Shown one piece after another: positions 20,405 to 49,618 of a DNA stretch of 64,000 bases; positions within the stretch are counted from its first letter, which is position 1; each line of letters starts with the position of its first letter. This DNA comes from Macrostomum lignano (Eukaryota). Made by a program: the position numbers and the translations under genes. The stretch is taken from NCBI GenBank assembly GCA_002269645.1, contig NIVC01001247.1:220928-284927 (forward strand). The letters run 5' to 3'. The notes below the pieces were generated by a model, which saw only the letters and a list, made by a program, of their open reading frames with translations, searched no databases and had not been told where the DNA came from.

Positions 20405-28409
<8,005 letters not shown>

Positions 28410-28776
28410 AATTATGGCTAGAAAGGAAGCTTTCCTCACTGTTTGACTTGCTAATTTTGCGGATAGAGAAAATTAGTTATAACTTACTTACATGTACACC
28501 GCATTGTAAAACGACTCCGCGACTCAGCGTGCATTAATTGGGATTTGAAGGCTCTCGCCTTAGTCTATAAAAACGTTTGCTCCAGTTTGGAAGCAGAAAG
28601 CGTATGAAAGCGAAGAAAGAAGGATTTATTAAACGATGAAACGTTATATCAACAGCTGCACCGATTCGCTGAGGAACATTTTTCTTTCCTATTGGAGCAC
28701 CTTCTTCATAGACAAAAGGGAACAATACTAAATACTAAATACAGATTGCACTATCCCCACCATAGACAAAAGGGAA

Positions 28777-29926
28777 TGTAGTGAGTCGCTAGTTTAGTTA
28801 GGCGCCGCACTAGTCAGCTGTTGCCCTCGCCTTCTCCCCAGGTTTCTGTCTGCCGCTGGGCAGTTGCCTGTCCCTCCCGCCTGTCTCCTGGCCTGTCCTC
28901 TGCCCGTTTGTCTGTCTGTCTGTTTGTCCTCGTTTGCCCCCTTTTGTCTCGTTTTCCCTTTTTGCAGTGCCCAGACAGCTTGGTCTGGCCTGCCTCTGTT
29001 TCGTTCTCTGTCAGGCATCTCCAAATTTGGAGTGCCTTTCTGTTTTCCGGTCCCACGGTCACGAGTGCCTTCACTTGTGGGCCGTTTCCCCTTGTCATGT
29101 GAGCCAGTCACATGACAAGGCCCTCTTCCTTCTTTAGTCCAAAGTACAATGATTTCATCATTGTACGCTGGGCTCGTGTTTATGGGGAGATCACGTGCGC
29201 CCGGACCCCCCCCCTTTGCCTCCTCTGAGGCAGGGCCCGCTTGTTTGTTGCTAAAAATAGCAACAGAGTCACTCATGACTCTCAGCGGGGGCCTTTCGTA
29301 ATGTGTGCAATCGATCCTCCCTATAAATGCGGCCCCTCTCATGGCTTGGCTCAGACAAGCGTGCCAACCCTTCCTTCCTTTCCTTCCGTTAACCGTTCCT
29401 TCCGTTTCAAGCGCCTTCCGTTTCTAGCGAACTCTAAGTTTGTGTGCCAAGTGTGCGCTTCAAGTGAACTCCAAACTCCCGACTTTGCGCGTGACTGCCT
29501 CTGATTGTTCCTGCTATCAATTAGCAGGCCAGCTCGGATCGCCCGAAGCTAGCACTTTCGCTCTCACCCCGCACCAGCCCGGCAGGGACTGCTGACGGTG
29601 GGCACCTCTGCGCGAGAACTGCTAAATCTGCACGAAGTGCGAGTCTCTTTCTCTCGTCTTATTTATTTGCTTCTACGAGCTCAGCACCTCACCGAAGGCT
29701 GCGACTCTGCGAAGCTGGTGGCAGCACTACCAACGCTACTAGATCAACCCGGAGACTTCCCAGGAGAGCTCAAGGTAGGCAGCTCAAGCAACTGTACTTC
29801 TAGACGCTATCGAGGAAAGTACAAGCAACCACTTCACTGGTGGCAGCGGTGGGATTCCAAGACCTACGCCCGGCTAGGCCACCCGAGACAAAATAAGAAA
29901 CCACCAACAACGCGAACTGTACTTCA
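28777..29926 (+). repeat. 5' LTR (1150 bp); TATAAAT at 29322; splice donor AAG|GTAGGC at 29775; internal PBS copy at 29838-29857
   Basis: Matches 37731-38893 apart from a 14-bp indel and a 1-bp G-run difference seen by eye. Confidence 0.96.
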
Positions 29927-29927
29927 C

Positions 29928-29945
29928 TGGTGGCAGCGGTGGGAT
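29928..29945 (+). other. Primer-binding site TGGTGGCAGCGGTGGGAT, complementary to the tRNA-Leu 3' end
   Basis: Starts one base after the LTR end. Its reverse complement ATCCCACCGCTGCCACCA is the known 3' end of metazoan tRNA-Leu(AAG/UAG). Confidence 0.9.
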
Positions 29946-30027
29946 CCGACAAGTCAAGATTCGACTACTACTACACCCAAGACAACCGCTCTTTCGAGTA
30001 AGAATTCGGCTATTCTACTAATTTGAA

Positions 30028-31197
30028 ATGTTTAACGAGAGAGAAGAGAGCCGGTGCAGCAGCCGGCTGGATCAGCACATCAGCAGTTCGAGACCTGCAG
30101 CAGCATCGGCTGCCGCAGCAGCAGCGGTCAACGACCTTGGTCAGCAGATGCCGCGGCGAAGTGCGAGAAGCGAAGTGTCCGAAGACCCGCCAGACGAGCT
30201 TCTGCCAGGTTTGGACGACCTCGGCCAGAACATCAGGCCCCAGGATGTGAGAACGATGATGGCAGCTCTGCAGCAGCAGATGGAGCGGCCGGTAAGCAAA
30301 TCTGTTAAGATTGTAAAGTACACGCCCAGCCAGGACATCCACGTCTGGCTCGCCGCGTTCGAGCAGCGCTGCGAGATGGAGCGTATCGAAGACCCGATCG
30401 AGATGAAGCAGCACCTCGTTGCGAGTCTAGATCTGGCAACCGCTTACCCGGCTCTGCTCAGTATGCACCTCCCACGCTATGCTGGCTACGAGGAGGTCAG
30501 GCAGCGACTGATCGAGAGATTCGCCCGCCACGGTGGCGCGGATGAATATCGAGAGCTGCTGAGGCGCCGTCAGCAAGGCAAGAACGAGTCAGCAGAAGAG
30601 TACGCTGATGCCCTGCGCACCTTGGGAGAGCGAGCGTACCCTCGAATGCACCCTGAGGATCGAGAGCGGGAGCTGGCTGATCAGTTCCTAGCTGGCATCA
30701 GGACGACACCAGATCTGCGCGAGCGGCTCTATTGGGTCCGCCCGAACAATCTGCTGGCCGCTATTCGAGAACTCCATCGTCTGGAAGGCGCCAAGGAACT
30801 GGCGCAGCGCTCTGCTCAACCCCCGGTTCGCATGCTGAACGGGGAGCGCGACGGTGACCCGACGCCCGACGCCACCGCTCAAGCTCTCCTGGCTCTGACT
30901 GATCTGCTAGAGAAACAGCAGCGACTGCTAGACAACCTGGTGCAGCGTGACCAGCAGCAGAAGACGAGTCCGCCTGCGAAAGCCATGATCTGCTATGGCT
31001 GTGGTCAGCCTGGTCATCGCAATGCACAGTGCCCGTTACGCCAGAACCAGGGAAACGGCGAGACGGAGAGCGCCCACGGCAACGCCCTCCGCAGAGCCCA
31101 AGCCCCGGCTACTTGGCAGACTCCGAACGCTCACCAGAAGAAGAGGATGTCGGCTGCGCAGGCGCCAATGCCCAGTCCGACAGTCGCTCATCAGTAA
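30028..31197 (+). CDS. gag: Gag
   Basis: 389 aa; capsid-like WLAAFEQRCE and QGKNESAEEYADALR motifs; CCHC knuckle CYGCGQPGHRNAQC. Confidence 0.93.
   Translation: MFNEREESRCSSRLDQHISSSRPAAASAAAAAAVNDLGQQMPRRSARSEVSEDPPDELLPGLDDLGQNIRPQDVRTMMAALQQQMERPVSKSVKIVKYTPSQDIHVWLAAFEQRCEMERIEDPIEMKQHLVASLDLATAYPALLSMHLPRYAGYEEVRQRLIERFARHGGADEYRELLRRRQQGKNESAEEYADALRTLGERAYPRMHPEDRERELADQFLAGIRTTPDLRERLYWVRPNNLLAAIRELHRLEGAKELAQRSAQPPVRMLNGERDGDPTPDATAQALLALTDLLEKQQRLLDNLVQRDQQQKTSPPAKAMICYGCGQPGHRNAQCPLRQNQGNGETESAHGNALRRAQAPATWQTPNAHQKKRMSAAQAPMPSPTVAHQ
31050..31091 (+). promoter_or_regulatory. -1 ribosomal frameshift signal (G GGA AAC, 7-nt spacer, stem-loop)
   Basis: The heptamer is in gag phase and pol is in the -1 frame. 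CGGAGAGCG (31064-31072) pairs with CGCCCTCCG (31083-31091) with one mismatch. Confidence 0.75.
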
Positions 31198-32366
31198 GTG
31201 AGGCTGAGTGCGGAGGTTTCGTGGACACCTCCGATGATCAAAAAATCCATGCGCGTGAGGCCGATCCGTACGTCACCGGCCGATTGGCGGGCCGAGAAGT
31301 CCCTTTCCTACTAGACAGCGGCAGTCGGAAAAACTTTCTTGGAGCGTCGACCTGGGCCAATGTTAGACGTCGGATGCCTCGTTGTATCATATCGCATGCT
31401 ATCCCGGATTGCGTGACCATGTACGACGGTACGCAGCTACCCCTTGCGTGTAAGGTGATCATCCCGGTGGAGTTCGGTGATGTCGTCGCGGACACCGAAT
31501 TCCTGGTCACGGTCACCGATTGTGAAAATTTGCTTGGTATTAATTTCATGCGTGAACACTGCCAAAACTTGGACTTTGCGCAAGGAATGTTAAAGTTCAA
31601 CAATGGCGCGTGCATTCCCGTTCGCTATTCGCGCCGTGAGCTTCAATCATGCCGGGTGTACACCTCCGAGAAGTGCACTCTGCCGCCGAGAAGTTCAGCG
31701 CTGTTGGCCGTCCAGTTGGATGTCGGCCACCCCGAGAACCGAGGATCGCCATCAATCGTCGAGCTGGTGAAGTCGAGACTGCACCCCAGCTGCAACACTC
31801 TGGAAGCAGCTCCAGCTCTGATGACGATGCCTGAAGGTCGAGGCTACATCGAGGTCGTCAACACTGCTGACTGCGAGGTGTTCCTGCAGTCGGGCATCCG
31901 CGTTGGTGTTGCGACACCACTTAGAACTGCTGACCTGATGTACCTGGAAGAGACGCCGGAACCTGAAGTTCGACATTTGCCAAGGAGCCCTGAAGAGTCC
32001 AGCACAGCTTGGCTAGAGGAAGTCGAGATCAACAGCGAGCTGTCCGAAGATCAACGACAGAGAGTGCGAGATCTACTAGTTGAGTGTCAAGCAGCCTTCT
32101 CGAAGCATCTGCTAGACGCTGGCCTGACACACCTGGTGACCCACGAGATCATCCTGAAGGATCGGACACCAGTTGCGCTACCACCGCGCAGGATCCCGCC
32201 TCATCTGAAGGACAAGCTAGACGCCCTGCTAGACGAGATGCTGGCGAAGCACATCATTCGCCCGGCTTATTCTAGCTACAACTCGCCAATGCTGATAGTG
32301 CCCAAGAAGGACGGCAACATCAGGCTGGTGCATGACTTCAGAGCTCTCAACGACAAGTGCGTGTAG
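31050..32366 (+). pseudogene. pol: Pol part 1: aspartic protease and RT N-terminus, ending at a frameshift
   Basis: FLLDSGS protease motif; PPRRIP, YNSPMLIVPKKDG and DFRALN RT motifs. Confidence 0.9.
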
Positions 32367-33916
32367 TCGTGTACCACCCGTACCCGCTGCCGCACATTCA
32401 GGAGACCTTCGCGAAGCTGCGTGGTGCCCAGTGGTACTCTAGCTTGGATCTCGCTCAAGGATTCTGGCAGATCCCGCTGCGCGACTGCGATCAGCACCTG
32501 ACGGCGTTCTCTGTGATTGACCGCGGACAATTCTGTTTCAATGTTCTACCGATGGGTCTCCACGATAGTCCAGGCAGCTTTCAGCGTTGCATCAATAAGC
32601 TCCTGGATGGCCTGACGCCAAAGACTGCGCTTGGCTACATGGATGACATCGTGGTGCACTCCGTGACCTTCGAGGAGCAGCTGGACAACCTGCGGACTGT
32701 ACTCCAGCGGATTATCGCAGCCAACCTCAAGGTCAAGCCGAAGAAGTGCCATTTGTTCCTCAAGGAGCTGCATTATCTAGGCCACGTCGTGACTCCCGAC
32801 GGCCTGAAGACCTGTGAGGACAAGATTGCGCAGATCCGTGATTGGCCCGTGCCACAGTCCGTTACTCAACTGAGACAATTCCTAGGCCTCGCCAATTACT
32901 ACCACAAGTTTGTCAACGGCTACGCTGGATTTGCTGCGCCGCTGCATGCCCTGACTCGAAAGGACATCGGCAGCCTGCGGCAGCATTGGACTGATGAGCA
33001 CCAGGTAGCGTTCGACACGTTGAAGAAGAAGTTGTGTTCGACTGAAGTTCTCGCTCTGCCTGAGTTTAACTCAGATCCTGATGTGAAGTTTGTCCTAGAC
33101 ACTGATGCCTCAGACATTCGCATAGGCGCTTGTCTTGGACAACGGCAATCCGACGGCGTCGAGCGCCCAATTGCATTCTTTAGCCGGAAGCTTCGTGATC
33201 CTGAGAAGCGCTACACGGTCACGAAGAAAGAGCTGCTTGCAATCGTGGACGCGATGCGACATTTCCGTCATTATTTAATCGGCAAGAAGTTTGAAGTTCG
33301 TTCTGACCATCGGGCCTTGCTGTGGCTGCTGAACCAGACGCAGGTCACAGGCATCTTGGGCCGTTGGATTGAGCGATTAAGCGAGTTCCGCTTCCAGCTT
33401 CACCATCGCAAAGGCAAGGACCACGCCAACGCTGACGCCCTGTCAAGACGCCCGGAGACACCACCGGTTGACTTCGAACATGGCCGACTGCTGGAGCACC
33501 CCGGTTCTGCAGCCCGACCCGGTGATGACACCAGCCTGGAGCCGGAATTGGACACCACACGTGAGGCCACTGCGAGAGCAGCCCGCACGAAGAAGGTCCA
33601 CACTCGCAACAAGGAGGCCGAAACTGCCCTGGCCGAAGACCTGGAGGCCACTGCGCCAGCAGCCCTTCAGCACGACGACCATCGCTGCAGTCAACGCCTG
33701 GAGACCGGTTTGGACACCAACCCGGAGGCCACTGACCCCTCAGCCCTCCGCAGCGACGCCCACGCCGACTGCCGTTACTTGGAGATTCGCCCGGACAAAA
33801 CCTCGGAGGCCACTGCTGACGTAGACCTCCTTGATGATGTCCAAGACTGCGGGTCTCGGAATCTGGAGACGCCCATGGACCACGACTCAGAGGCCACTGA
33901 ACAAGCAGCCCTCTGA
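32367..33916 (+). pseudogene. pol: Pol part 2: RT core and RNase H, followed by a repetitive linker
   Basis: YPLP, LDLAQGFWQI, YMDD, LDTDAS, KELLAIV, SDHRAL and ANADALSR motifs. Confidence 0.92.
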
Positions 33917-33998
33917 TGACAGCCCACAACGCGAATCCAGACCAGCAATGTAAGTTCAACTCCCCGGAGTTTTGCGCTGAGAGTTCTCGCCGTGTTGA

Positions 33999-35564
33999 CA
34001 GAGGCCAGACTCTCGCGACGGCTGCAAGGTCAACGCTCTGTCCCCCGAGCCGACAGACAGCTGCTCATCGCCTGTGCGGAAAGTCGAGTCCCCCTTTGCG
34101 ACACCGCCCAGTGCTGGAGAAGACTCACCCAATGACGACGATGATCGAGCCGACGGCTACGGCTGCTGTGACGAGGCGTGCTTCACGTGTTGCGTCTCGC
34201 CCTACAGCCAAGAGTCGCCTGGGCTGTGCAGTGGAGGCAAGTGCACTGCTCCAGCTGCGGAAATTCCTGTCAAGAGAGCGACGATGAGAACTTCGAAACG
34301 AGATCAGCGATCGTACGCCGACGTTGTGAAACAAAGTCCCTCGGAGCGACCTAATCCTGACGCCGACAAGACGGAGTCGTGTGATCAACTGCGAGCCACA
34401 GAAGCGGAGACTGCGGGAGTCATGAACCCTCAGCCATGCCGCGCCGTGCTCACCGATTTTATGAGGTTGCCGATGACGCGGCAACAGTTTGTCGACGCGC
34501 AGCGCGCCGACCGAGCAATCAGCTATGTGCTCAACTTGGTCGAGAACAAAGCCCCGAAGCCTGAGTTCGACGCCCGGTTGCGACTGACGAAGGAGCAGCG
34601 GAATCTGCTCGGATATTATGATAATCTGCTAGAGGACAACGGCCTGCTGATGATCGACCTGACCGACGGCCAGCAGTCCCCGAAGGTTGTCCTGCCTGAG
34701 TCTCTTGATGCCCAGGTGCTCCAGGAGCTCCACAGTTCGCCACTGTGTGGACACCTCGGCCAGACGAAGACGTTGAAGCGGCTACGTGAACGATTCTGGA
34801 GGCCCGGATTAGCCCGTGTCACCGAGAGCTTTATCAGTAAGTGCCGCGCCTGTCTTGAAAGTAAATCCCGAAGACGAGACCGAGTACCTGTACAAAGCTT
34901 CCCTGTGTGCGAAGTTCTGGGAAGAGTAGTAGGCCCAATTGCCCAGAAGAGCAAGAGCGGGAACCGCTACATCTTGACGCTATGCGACGCGACGTCGAAG
35001 TACCCGTTCGCCTATCCGATGAGGAACCAGAAAGCCAAGACGGTCATCAAGATCCTGCAGGAGCGCTTGATCCCTGACTTTGGTGTACCATGCTGGATAC
35101 ACACTGATCAAGGAACCAATTTCACTGGCTCAGCTTTCAAGGAGTTCTGTGACCTGTTTGGCATCCGGCATACGACGACAACACCGTACAACCCAGCTTC
35201 TAATGGGCAAGTCGAGAACCTCAACAAGCAGCTGAAGAGTGTCCTCACCTGCCTCCTCGAGCGCAACCATAACGACTGGGACACCTTCCTCCCAGCCTGC
35301 TTGATGGCGCTCCGCTCTAGTGTACACCCGGTGACAGGTTTCACGCCTCACTACCTGGTGTTTGGTCGAGACTTTCGACTACCAATCGACAACGCGATCA
35401 AGAAGCTGCCGGAGTATGCCAATCTGCCTGACTATGTCAAGGACTTCCAGCGCCGTTTGGACGAAGCGACTGAGCTAGCTAAAGAACGCCTGCATTCTGC
35501 ATCAGCAACTGCGCGACGAGCACTATTCGAACCTGCCCGCTGCCAAGAAGCTCCAACCTGGTGA
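33999..35564 (+). pseudogene. pol: Pol part 3: Cys/acidic linker and integrase (HHCC finger and core, first catalytic Asp missing)
   Basis: H-x6-H...C-x2-C finger; IHTDQGTNF; SNGQVEN; HPVTGFTP. The GRV-[xxDx]-VGP segment is shortened. Confidence 0.9.
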
Positions 35565-37365
35565 CCTGGTTTTCCTCAACAACCCGGTGCTCGAACCGGA
35601 TGAAGCGGCGAAGTTCCATCGACCTCGCAAAGCGCTGTACGAGGTAGTCGAACCCAAGGGCGAGGTCGTCTACAAGATTCGCCGTAGAGTGCCAAACCCG
35701 CGGGCCAGGCGCGACGAGCTAGTAGTCCATCGCCGGAATCTGCTACTCGTCCCTGATGCCGACTACCAGCTGACTTCGGATCCAGAAGTCGACCAGGCCA
35801 AGAAGCGCTGCAGGTTGACTGATGCCCCGGACGGTGCAGGACCCGCGACCCTGACACCGATCCCGGAGGACGATCCTGATGATGATGATGATGACGATGA
35901 CGCATGGCCGGCCTTCCGGTGGCGCTTCCGGCCGGTGGCGATCCCGGATGTGCAGCCAGGAGGTGGACCGGTCACGACACCAGCGAACCAGGCAAGTGCA
36001 TTTCGGCGTGAGCCACTGCCGTATGGTGATCGCCATGATGGTGTGCCTGGTTTGAATGCGTCTGCACCTGTTGCTTCTTTTTCACCTGTCCATGCGTCCC
36101 CCCTTCCCGAACCTTTTTCTGCGGTGCAGTCTCCTGCGCCACCTTCTTGCACCACTCGGGTGGAAGCGTCTCCCATACCAGTAGTGGTAGGTAGGCCAAT
36201 TAGGGATCGGAGGCCGCCGGAGAGGCTTCTGATTAGCGATCCTAGGGCCAAAACGTACGTCAGTCGCACCGCCCGCATGCGTGTGCACAAATTAAAACAT
36301 TTCAGCGCAGCAATGCACAAGCGCCCTTATCAGGCGAATTCAAGCGCGTCCTCTGAGGATGAGCAGGGTCGGCCTAGCCGGAGCCGCCACAGGCAGGGAA
36401 CCCCGTCCTCCCCGGAGGTCATGGGTATACCGCGCCGACCTTTAGCGGCGCGGCAATTGCTGCAGCCCGATGGTCAGGAACACCCGGTGCGCCCACCCCG
36501 GCGTGGAAGGGAGCGAGAGAGTCGCAACGACTCCCCATCACCCGAGAGTCGACGGAGCCGACCTAGCCACCTAGCCCGAGGAACGGTCCGCGTGGAACTC
36601 CCCGAGGTCATTGACCTCACGGGTGACTCGCCGCCGGGCGATGCCCCGGTTCGCCGGCTCACGGCTCAGCGGCTGGCAGCTGCCCTTGCCTATGCTCAAC
36701 TAGAACAGGAGGTGAGCCGCGGGTTACGCGCGGTCCGCCGCCAGATACGAGCCGCCTTTCCAGATCCCGACCCGGAGCCCGGCCACCTGGAGGCGCACCG
36801 AAATGATCTTAGCGAGGCCGTCGCCGGAGGCCCAAGGGACCCCCCGCAGCCAGGGTCCCCCATGTCCTTGGTCGAAGGCGCCCCGTCGCCGAGAGCCGGC
36901 CAAGAGGCATCGGCTGAGCCGGCCGGTCTGTGGGACGGCCTGACGGCCGCACTGAGCCGCGAGTTACCACGTGCGCCACCGTCAACGCCAGAGAATCCGC
37001 CAACGATGGCGAATGCCAGCACGCAAACGGCCGACCCGGAGCCAGCTTCGCCCGCCGACGAAGCGCGGGCGGCTCTGTTGATGGCCGGTGCTGGCCTGGC
37101 GCGCAACCTCCTGGTCGCCGCGGCTCGACACGGCCACTGGCCGCGGGTGTTCGCGGGTCCGATATGGAGCAGCCTGCGCTGGACGACGAGGGAGAAGCGC
37201 TCGGCCCTGTTCGAAGAGGCTGTTCGTCTGGGCGGGCCGGACTTGCAGCCACCGAATCGCCCATACGCTGTACACCTGGCGGCGATCGAGATCGCCCGGC
37301 ATCTCGGCGGCAGTGATGCTGACCTGCCGGCGGCCCTGGCCCGGCCGTCGATGCAGTATTTCTGA
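35500..37365 (+). CDS. Integrase C-terminal (GPY/F-like) domain continuing in frame into an accessory ORF (ATG 36313, 350 aa)
   Basis: QPGDLVFL...FHRP..YEVV..VHRRNL and RDRRPPERL mark the IN end. They are followed by a Pro/Arg-rich region, VIDLT and a helical C-terminal segment. No signal peptide or TM segment is apparent. Confidence 0.65.
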   Translation, partial: HQQLRDEHYSNLPAAKKLQPGDLVFLNNPVLEPDEAAKFHRPRKALYEVVEPKGEVVYKIRRRVPNPRARRDELVVHRRNLLLVPDADYQLTSDPEVDQAKKRCRLTDAPDGAGPATLTPIPEDDPDDDDDDDDAWPAFRWRFRPVAIPDVQPGGGPVTTPANQASAFRREPLPYGDRHDGVPGLNASAPVASFSPVHASPLPEPFSAVQSPAPPSCTTRVEASPIPVVVGRPIRDRRPPERLLISDPRAKTYVSRTARMRVHKLKHFSAAMHKRPYQANSSASSEDEQGRPSRSRHRQGTPSSPEVMGIPRRPLAARQLLQPDGQEHPVRPPRRGRERESRNDSPSPESRRSRPSHLARGTVRVELPEVIDLTGDSPPGDAPVRRLTAQRLAAALAYAQLEQEVSRGLRAVRRQIRAAFPDPDPEPGHLEAHRNDLSEAVAGGPRDPPQPGSPMSLVEGAPSPRAGQEASAEPAGLWDGLTAALSRELPRAPPSTPENPPTMANASTQTADPEPASPADEARAALLMAGAGLARNLLVAAARHGHWPRVFAGPIWSSLRWTTREKRSALFEEAVRLGGPDLQPPNRPYAVHLAAIEIARHLGGSDADLPAALARPSMQYF

Positions 37366-37718
37366 AACAATGGTGACGAAGAAGCTGCAATTTAACTATG
37401 GTATTCCGGATGAGGTGCTCTCGCCAACCCGCAACTCTCTCCCAGTTAGGGATGGAGATGCCTCCACGCGTGCTTAGGCGCCCCCCCCTGTTTTCTTTTC
37501 TCTGGTGGGCTGGCGCCCCCACTTCGTATTTAGGCGCCTTGCTAATAGCAGGCCGGCGCCCCTGCGGTAGCGGGCAACAACCTTTTTGGCCTGCCCAGCC
37601 AAGCAGTTAAAGACAGAAATTTTGCCGTTCATGTTTAAGTTGTTTCTCTTTGGTCAGTAAATGCATGTTCATCTTGTTTTAAATAAAGCGCGCGCCGCTT
37701 CACTCCGCCTCTTTATTT

Positions 37719-37730
37719 GAACGGGGAGAG
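37719..37730 (+). other. Polypurine tract GAACGGGGAGAG
   Basis: Abuts the TG of the 3' LTR. Confidence 0.9.
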
Positions 37731-38893
37731 TGTAGTGAGTCGCTAGTTTAGTTAGGCGCCGCACTAGTCAGCTGTTGCCCTCGCCTTCTCCCCAGGTTTC
37801 TGTCTGCCGCTGGGCAGTTGCCTGTCCCTCCCGCCTGTCTCCTGGCCTGTCCTCTGCCCGTTTGTCTGTCTGTCTGTTTGTCCTCGTTTGCCCCCTTTTG
37901 TCTCGTTTTCCCTTTTTGCAGTGCCCAGACAGCTTGGTCTGGCCTGCCTCTGTTTCGTTCTCTGTCAGGCATCTCCAAATTTGGAGTGCCTTTCTGTTTT
38001 CCGGTCCCACGGTCACGAGTGCCTTCACTTGTGGGCCGTTTCCCCTTGTCATGTGAGCCAGTCACATGACAAGGCCCTCTTCCTTCTTTAGTCCAAAGTA
38101 CAATGATTTCATCATTGTACGCTGGGCTCGTGTTTATGGGGAGATCACGTGCGCCCGGACCCCCCCCCTTTGCCTCCTCTGAGGCAGGGCCCGCTTGTTT
38201 GTTGCTAAAAATAGCAACAGAGTCACTCATGACTCTCAGCGGGGCCTTTCGTAATGTGTGCAATCGATCCTCCCTATAAATGCGGCCCCTCTCATGGCTT
38301 GGCTCAGACAAGCGTGCCAACCCTTCCTTCCTTTCCTTCCGTTAACCGTTCCTTCCGTTTCAAGCGCCTTCCGTTTTCCGCGTTCCGTTTCTAGCGAACT
38401 CTAAGTTTGTGTGCCAAGTGTGCGCTTCAAGTGAACTCCAAACTCCCGACTTTGCGCGTGACTGCCTCTGATTGTTCCTGCTATCAATTAGCAGGCCAGC
38501 TCGGATCGCCCGAAGCTAGCACTTTCGCTCTCACCCCGCACCAGCCCGGCAGGGACTGCTGACGGTGGGCACCTCTGCGCGAGAACTGCTAAATCTGCAC
38601 GAAGTGCGAGTCTCTTTCTCTCGTCTTATTTATTTGCTTCTACGAGCTCAGCACCTCACCGAAGGCTGCGACTCTGCGAAGCTGGTGGCAGCACTACCAA
38701 CGCTACTAGATCAACCCGGAGACTTCCCAGGAGAGCTCAAGGTAGGCAGCTCAAGCAACTGTACTTCTAGACGCTATCGAGGAAAGTACAAGCAACCACT
38801 TCACTGGTGGCAGCGGTGGGATTCCAAGACCTACGCCCGGCTAGGCCACCCGAGACAAAATAAGAAACCACCAACAACGCGAACTGTACTTCA
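37731..38893 (+). repeat. 3' LTR (1163 bp), with the internal PBS copy at 38805-38824
   Basis: Near-identical to the 5' LTR; ends ACTTCA followed by the GGAA TSD. Confidence 0.96.

Positions 38894-42806: not shown

Positions 42807-49618
<6,812 letters not shown>

Follow-up and report, generated by a model that had tools for sequence, protein, structure and literature searches.

An open frame behind the integrase of a young Ty3/Gypsy element

If a retrotransposon carries a long open frame behind its integrase that does not resemble an envelope gene, is that frame a gene of its own, and what might its product do for the element? This question was raised by the window, a stretch of 64,000 nucleotides of Macrostomum lignano DNA in which a complete Ty3/Gypsy LTR retrotransposon, at 28777-38893, houses the frame as its third ORF. 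Gag and the order PR-RT-RNase H-integrase were found between the LTRs, along with a primer-binding site (PBS), a polypurine tract, and a target duplication. The main features of the element are listed below.

28773-28776, 5' of the 5' LTR: 4-bp target duplication GGAA, found again after the 3' LTR
28777..29926, + strand: 5' LTR (TG...CA), defined by comparison with the 3' LTR
29928..29945, + strand: PBS, presumably of the tRNA-Leu type
30028..31197, + strand: gag with a CCHC knuckle (zf-CCHC E 0.0014, below Pfam's cut-off)
30951..35564, + strand: pol, with PR, RT, RNase H, and the zinc-binding and core domains of integrase
35479..36276, + strand: integrase C-terminal region (Integrase_p58_C E 0.011) and acidic/proline-rich tail, ending at RDRRPPERL...KTYV
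37719..37730, + strand: polypurine tract
37731..38893, + strand: 3' LTR, followed by GGAA and a 47-nt satellite

The two LTRs aligned with 1148 matches, 0 mismatches, and two indels (1 and 14 nt), and because they are without mismatches this copy appears to be very young. It was inserted inside the 47-nt satellite. Pol is interrupted in the window copy near 32.36, 33.9, 34.2, and 35.5 kb; several of these sites differ between the window and the contigs of four sequencing runs, so the interruptions would be private lesions or assembly errors. The integrase was 94% identical to an M. lignano gene model, and the second-best match was likewise from M. lignano. SCAN-bearing fish elements, which we take to be linked to Gmr1, rank among the closest integrase matches outside this species, and on that basis the element probably belongs to the Gmr1/Osvaldo cluster.

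Several other properties of the element and its surroundings were recorded. No canonical heat-shock element was present in its LTR. Upstream of the true PBS (29928), the LTR contains a full PBS-like copy (29838), preceded by the LTR-end-like ACTTCA, and a partial one (29716). These copies and the true PBS (region 29715-29945, also 38682-38822) are spaced about 90-120 nt, and the LTR may have grown by capture of PBS units. Five GAGGCCACTG units, 81-84 nt (27-28 codons) apart at 33563-33899, sit between RNase H and integrase, in a linker of roughly 1 kb that is much longer than in the Pol protein P0004. The flanks hold large tandem arrays of short period and strong skew, which run in opposite orientations (25841-26999 and 43298-46149).

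Extent of the third ORF

The initial annotation had described about 350 codons open from an ATG at 36313, and re-derivation returned exactly these coordinates, from the start codon at 36313-36315 through 350 codons to a stop at 37363-37365. The same annotation placed the end of integrase near RDRRPPERL...KTYV, in agreement with three M. lignano Pol proteins (P0004, P0054, and P0055, near-identical and in one cluster) that end 16 residues past the matching K[ST]YV; because they end there, the 350 codons would be extra to Pol. In 20000 Markov simulations per order, 0.3-0.7% gave a fully open 1050-nt frame on the + strand, and the other five frames across the third ORF contain 6-11 stops each. 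A frame of this length is unlikely to come from composition alone.

The integrase tail at 35479..36276 shares its reading frame with the third ORF, and no stop interrupts the 628 codons from 35479 to 37365. A stop between integrase and the ATG was absent from the window and from one X12 relative over the sequence shown. Since no stop follows integrase, genomic RNA would also encode an integrase-third ORF fusion. The initial annotation had offered a plain Pol extension as its alternative. This reading may hold, since it predicts an open frame across the junction, as the window has and also, over the stretch covered, the X12 relative.

The features of the third ORF and its upstream edge are as follows.

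36300..36305, + strand: splice acceptor TTTCAG, likely a spliced-leader trans-splice site (junction in run X1, start of P0057, and motif)
36313..37365, + strand: third ORF, 350 aa, non-env (homologues and open frame)
36313..36603, + strand: Arg/Ser/Pro-rich N-terminal region, predicted to be disordered (composition and model)
36604..36630, + strand: EVIDLTGDS, a predicted SIMb-type SUMO-interaction motif (SIM) (invariant columns and rejoining contigs)
36922..37050, + strand: conserved Trp-led helix, proline linker, and TQT (LC8-type) motif at residues 237-239
37051..37347, + strand: all-helical C-terminal domain of about 100 residues with a GxWPxxF...W motif (model)

Homologues and conservation

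A phmmer search with the third-ORF protein over 1.84 billion proteins returned a single match, P0053 (E 5e-5), with residues 177-344 as the scored stretch. A profile search added P0056, and P0057 falls in the P0056 cluster. All three are hypothetical proteins of M. lignano annotated as stand-alone; P0053 and P0056 correspond to gene models Mlig002074g2 and g3, and are known here as gene models alone. The window ORF was 31-33% identical to P0053 and P0056, and the identities in the comparison that includes P0057 were 33%, 31%, and 49%. Beyond M. lignano proteins, the searches were negative: a word-index search with the third ORF found no match, two ESM Atlas searches gave no usable match, and there were 0 relatives among 425 and 59 pattern matches in metagenome and viral contigs. 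Pfam held no family for the protein, the sole match being one homologue to the disordered DUF5315 (E 0.041), and the PDB sequences returned only C/EBP basic regions (E 3). A DnaJ domain was not matched at E up to 1 in any of the 3 proteins (window and homologues).

The window ORF, P0053, and P0056 have in common a Met-His start, EVIDLTxDS, the Trp helix, TQT, the C-terminal domain, and Arg richness. Because EVIDLTxDS lies outside the phmmer-scored residues, it independently confirms the homology. Invariant columns made up 8 of 9 in the SIM, compared to 19/97 in the N-terminal region, 14/97 in the middle, 12/43 at residues 204-246, and 20/99 in the C-terminal domain, so that the share outside the SIM was 14-28% by region (about 20%). 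A run of 6 invariant columns occurred in 3% of column shuffles, and [VI][VI]DLT had 0 occurrences in 64390 background residues. Because homologues at 31-33% identity keep the start, the motif, and the C-terminal domain, the third ORF is very likely a real gene under selection.

Variation among the contigs pointed in the same direction as to the motif. In diverged contigs the alignment to the window breaks off after 36281 or 36326 and resumes only at 36604 (20 nt; depth 109 in run X1 and 21 in X15) or at 36607 (27 nt; depth 27 in X5), and this rejoining at the VIDLT codons indicates that the motif is tied to integrase tails in diverged copies. Scoring 39 of the 40 best-supported of 397 variant rows (the other lying past the stop) gave 27 variants within the ORF: 15 silent, 12 replacement, and 0 stops, in a sample biased to well-supported rows that is not a dN/dS. 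Third codon positions accounted for 16 of the 27, and the silent share (15/27, compared to about 31% expected) gave P 0.008 for variants that were scored singly and are not independent. Among 12 of 65 indel rows, none fell inside the ORF and three fell within 40 nt after the stop; one listed contig piece inside the ORF has 2 gaps.

These results bear on the reading that the frame is a passenger, either a captured host fragment or a GC-rich open frame without a role for the element. A GC content of 69% favors open frames, and just two homologue clusters were found, all in one species. However, motif islands are kept at 31-33% identity, silent sites are in excess, and indels occur just after the stop with none inside the ORF in the 12 of 65 rows; we consider a passenger very improbable.

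Divergence in the ORF far outpaces that in the integrase tail. The depth of alignable relatives drops 10-20 fold in the middle of the ORF and climbs 3-5 fold over the C-terminal domain (X2 and X5). An X17 contig (record 23) had 7 differences in 353 letters up to 36323 and then about 1060 unlike letters, and in an X5 contig 1029 nt within 36516-37546 were replaced by 1334 others. Since the sequence past the ATG is unlike in copies whose integrase tails are near-identical, these contigs suggest that the third-ORF slot is exchanged as a cassette between subfamilies. In X18 there was no cover over 36581-37274, which was not read as absence. In contigs of X17 and X18 (depth 43 and 31), the beginning of gag (30125) is joined to the integrase tail (35830) and 5.7 kb are skipped; they may stem from a non-autonomous relative with a deletion, in which the end with the third ORF is retained, or from a different splice form.

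Features of the predicted protein

The product is not an Env, in agreement with the initial annotation. N-terminal hydropathy was negative in all 3 proteins, which gives no sign of a signal peptide, and the third-ORF protein has 0 Cys, unlike a Cys-rich ectodomain. The best 19-residue hydropathy was 1.62 in the window protein and was not kept in the homologues (0.99 and 1.31).

The basic, Arg/Ser/Pro-rich start of the product that had been noted corresponds to the predicted disordered region at 36313..36603. Arg residues number 19 in the first 110 residues of the window protein and 26-27 in the homologues; Arg clusters are present in all three, with the region conserved in composition only. 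VIDLT begins at residue 99, at 36607-36621 as annotated, and its conservation, which had been put forward as a check, is borne out in the M. lignano homologues. The motif has the VIDLT core, acidic/Ser flank, disordered context, and conservation of a SIMb. According to passages of PMC3901395, VIDLT is the optimized core of the PIAS SIMb, and by this sequence likeness we consider it quite likely that the third-ORF protein binds SUMO.

An LC8-type TQT anchor lies in the disordered region of 3/3 distinct proteins, where about 0.04 would be expected per 400 aa of background. The window TQT is not aligned with that of the homologues; its counterpart in the alignment is a second, weaker site of theirs. 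As described in part of PMC7861614, TQT serves as the anchor for LC8, which dimerizes the Panoramix complex in Drosophila silencing. Conservation of the C-terminal helical domain, likewise suggested as a check, was found in P0053 and P0056. A single-sequence model of the protein had pLDDT 44, too low for use, and a further model had pLDDT 63.7; fold searches gave generic helical matches only (best Foldseek E 0.7 and 1.2; best VIA Z 6.6).

Expression of the third ORF

The acceptor-like AG annotated at 36304-36305 is present as TTTCAG, 7 nt before the ATG. It fits the [T/C]TNCAG expected just before the first exon of a trans-spliced gene, a motif that is weak by itself (the element's internal region has 21 occurrences of [T/C]TNCAG and 2 of TTTCAG). 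One contig marks this site: X1 record 5 (908 nt, depth 13) has 888 letters identical to 36305-37192 and then 20 unaligned upstream letters, the junction standing in that one contig, with the 20 letters unread and the run type guessed (DNA). The size of X1 (130 million letters) and its few variants resemble the runs guessed to be RNA. The sequence CATTTCAG is kept even in diverged relatives (X12 contig), yet X1 record 5 departs there. X1 also has the window's exact ORF haplotype to 37703, but the alleles private to the window at 36199 and 36261 are absent from it. This pattern fits a spliced RNA that starts at 36306. Likewise, P0057, which is 5'-partial, begins two codons before the Met, as would an exon starting at 36306 with 7 nt ahead of the ATG; according to part of PMC5730564, M. 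lignano gene models were cut at leader trans-splice sites. We consider it likely that RNA is cut at the acceptor at 36305.

The partner of this acceptor was taken in the initial annotation to be a 5' LTR donor, AAG|GTAGGC. The donor is at 29774|29775 as described, but it is off the top M. lignano donor motif, GT[G/A]AG. It would align back two letters rather than the one letter (36305) seen in the junction contig, and no 29774-36306 joint was found among the 15 of 29 joints listed from four RNA-guessed runs. Of 15 GT[A/G]AG donors upstream, only 30291 aligns back one letter; it fits the edge, but puts the ORF out of frame behind the start of gag. A cis junction should also share about 30 letters, a figure inferred from the overlap of X1 records 5 and 8, compared to 21 seen. 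Passages of PMC8629364 state that the M. lignano spliced leader ends in ATG, that it is joined to 30% of genes, and that its top acceptor motif is [T/C]TNCAG. Alignment from exactly 36305 is predicted for this leader because its ATG end matches back one letter. On balance, a cut by the spliced leader rather than from a cis donor seems slightly favored; the initial annotation had overlooked that this host practices spliced-leader trans-splicing. The leader AUG would be out of frame and opens a 16-codon ORF over the start of the third ORF. Taken together, the conserved non-env ORF, its VIDLT, its C-terminal helical domain, and a probable acceptor at 36305 are supported from the initial annotation, and the LTR donor is not.

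The related Pol proteins P0004, P0054, and P0055 end in LLFQLE, about the same distance from K[ST]YV as the window acceptor. The LLFQLE ends may conceal an acceptor, and trans-splicing to a site where pol ends may be a general feature of the clade. The sole AATAAA between the ORF stop and the element end is at 37682-37687, just before the polypurine tract, with none in the 3' LTR, and the third-ORF mRNA might end there.

The junction also bears on a reading in which the third ORF is an integrase-fused targeting tail: it would be made by read-through from pol, and its SIM would hold the integration complex at heterochromatin rich in SUMO. Chromodomains target integration in other Gypsy elements. 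In the window, integrase and ORF are read without an intervening stop, the same stop-free spacing is present in the X12 relative, and the window copy is inserted in the 47-nt satellite; functional SIMs are described for HIV-1 integrase in part of PMC10144533. However, the Met-His start is kept in all homologues, which are annotated as stand-alone, a junction is seen at the acceptor, related Pol proteins end here, and a single insertion site shows no preference. We regard a targeting tail as unlikely.

Proposed role

We tentatively prefer, at somewhat less than even confidence, a nuclear SUMO-binding adaptor that would shield transcription of the element from SUMO-dependent silencing. Silencing of transposons through SUMO is reportedly documented in Drosophila, including in work on Su(var)2-10; for flatworms, none was found in the open-access literature searched. 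Spliced-leader trans-splicing at 36305 would free the third gene as its own mRNA, with the element behaving as host operons do; ribosomes would come to the ATG through leaky scanning past the out-of-frame AUG of the leader. EVIDLT would dock the predicted adaptor on SUMO, and there is an even chance that LC8-driven dimerization makes the single SIM bivalent. The Arg-rich part could provide nuclear import or RNA binding. The protein would then act at the loci of the element itself, in competition with silencing factors that bear SIMs; this is the least certain step, which we hold only tentatively. The full picture of an operon-style element that uses an exchangeable, fast-evolving mimic, a PIAS-type SIM with an LC8 anchor, as a decoy for SUMO silencing is an unlikely conjunction. 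Passages of a 2019 review (PMC6719617) state that no transposon-encoded antagonist of piRNA silencing is known and that such factors should be rare.

An export adaptor resembling Rev or CERV would account for many of the same features. The Arg-rich region would bind unspliced genomic RNA, and LC8 and the helical domain would provide oligomerization, so that genomic RNA passes the splice and trans-splice machinery; the SIM would only place the protein in nuclear bodies. An internal acceptor, if always used, would destroy genomic RNA, hence a regulator would be needed, and Arg clusters occur in all three proteins. In the Cer1 element, as described in parts of the Cer1 papers, the non-env CERV is made from a spliced mRNA with and without SL1 and is required for export of genomic RNA. 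However, phmmer returned no sequence match to CERV, the protein has 0 Cys and thus no CERV-type Cys finger, and the SIM is the most conserved element, with the Arg-rich region kept in composition only. This reading is somewhat unlikely. It and the targeting tail are close rivals to the shielding adaptor, and the three are not mutually exclusive.

The same motifs could also serve self-restraint, with the protein recruiting SUMO-dependent silencing to copies of its own family to limit copy number or harm. Host silencing scaffolds have such motifs (SIM and TQT), and self-control strategies of transposons are discussed as common in part of the 2019 review. However, rapid divergence of the ORF and its apparent exchange between copies would suit conflict better, and self-restraint appears improbable.

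For the shielding adaptor, the wider interest lies in the arms-race model, which expects transposon anti-silencing proteins; none are known against the piRNA or KRAB pathways according to the same review passages (PMC6719617). The decoy reading, if true, would be a kind of protein counter-defense unreported for animal transposons in the open-access literature searched. If the junction is a spliced leader, it would be a new way of expressing a third ORF in LTR elements. The motif of the third-ORF family is short and sharply conserved, which makes it a suitable target for mutation in a transgenic animal.

Comparison with known systems

The third gene appears to be of no known family; non-env third ORFs as such are already known from bdelloid elements and Cer1. 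The open-access literature searched held no description of a SIM-bearing retrotransposon ORF3, of this protein family, or of leader trans-splicing directly behind pol. Ty3/Mdg4 families of M. lignano, from the same host and superfamily as the window element, are described in part of PMC12801592, whose main text has 0 occurrences of 'ORF' and 'splic'.

Bdelloid LTR retrotransposons have non-env ORF3s that, according to passages of PMC5408684, are family-specific, follow pol, and are modular and exchangeable, as here. Those ORF3s are enzymes (DEDDy, GDSL), coiled-coil, or membrane proteins, whereas the window ORF would encode a motif-bearing disordered adaptor with a helical domain of no known family. 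PIAS/RNF4-type SIMb proteins and viral antagonists of SUMO such as ICP0 of HSV-1 share with it the VIDLT core, the acidic/Ser flank, and the disordered region (PMC3901395 and PMC4907222, in the parts available); in contrast, the window protein has one SIM and no RING or ligase domain, is encoded by a retrotransposon, and binds SUMO by prediction. VANC of the plant VANDAL transposons is, in the review passages (PMC6719617), likewise a transposon accessory protein that is proposed to lift silencing from its own family. However, VANC comes from DNA transposons, acts on the DNA-methylation pathway in a sequence-specific manner, and has a function that was shown, whereas that of the third ORF is inferred.

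The closest parallel in layout is CERV of C. elegans Cer1, a Gypsy element with a non-env ORF in the env slot that has no outside homologues, as parts of PMC10309623 and PMC3315495 describe. Both have a spliced mRNA able to carry a spliced leader (predicted here) and a nuclear role (proposed here). No sequence likeness between them was found, CERV having a Cys finger and the third-ORF protein a SIM and TQT, and 'SUMO' has 0 occurrences in the text of the Cer1 paper. In those descriptions, cis-splicing gives a CERV mRNA that has exons in common with gag, whereas in the window element the leader would join directly behind pol.
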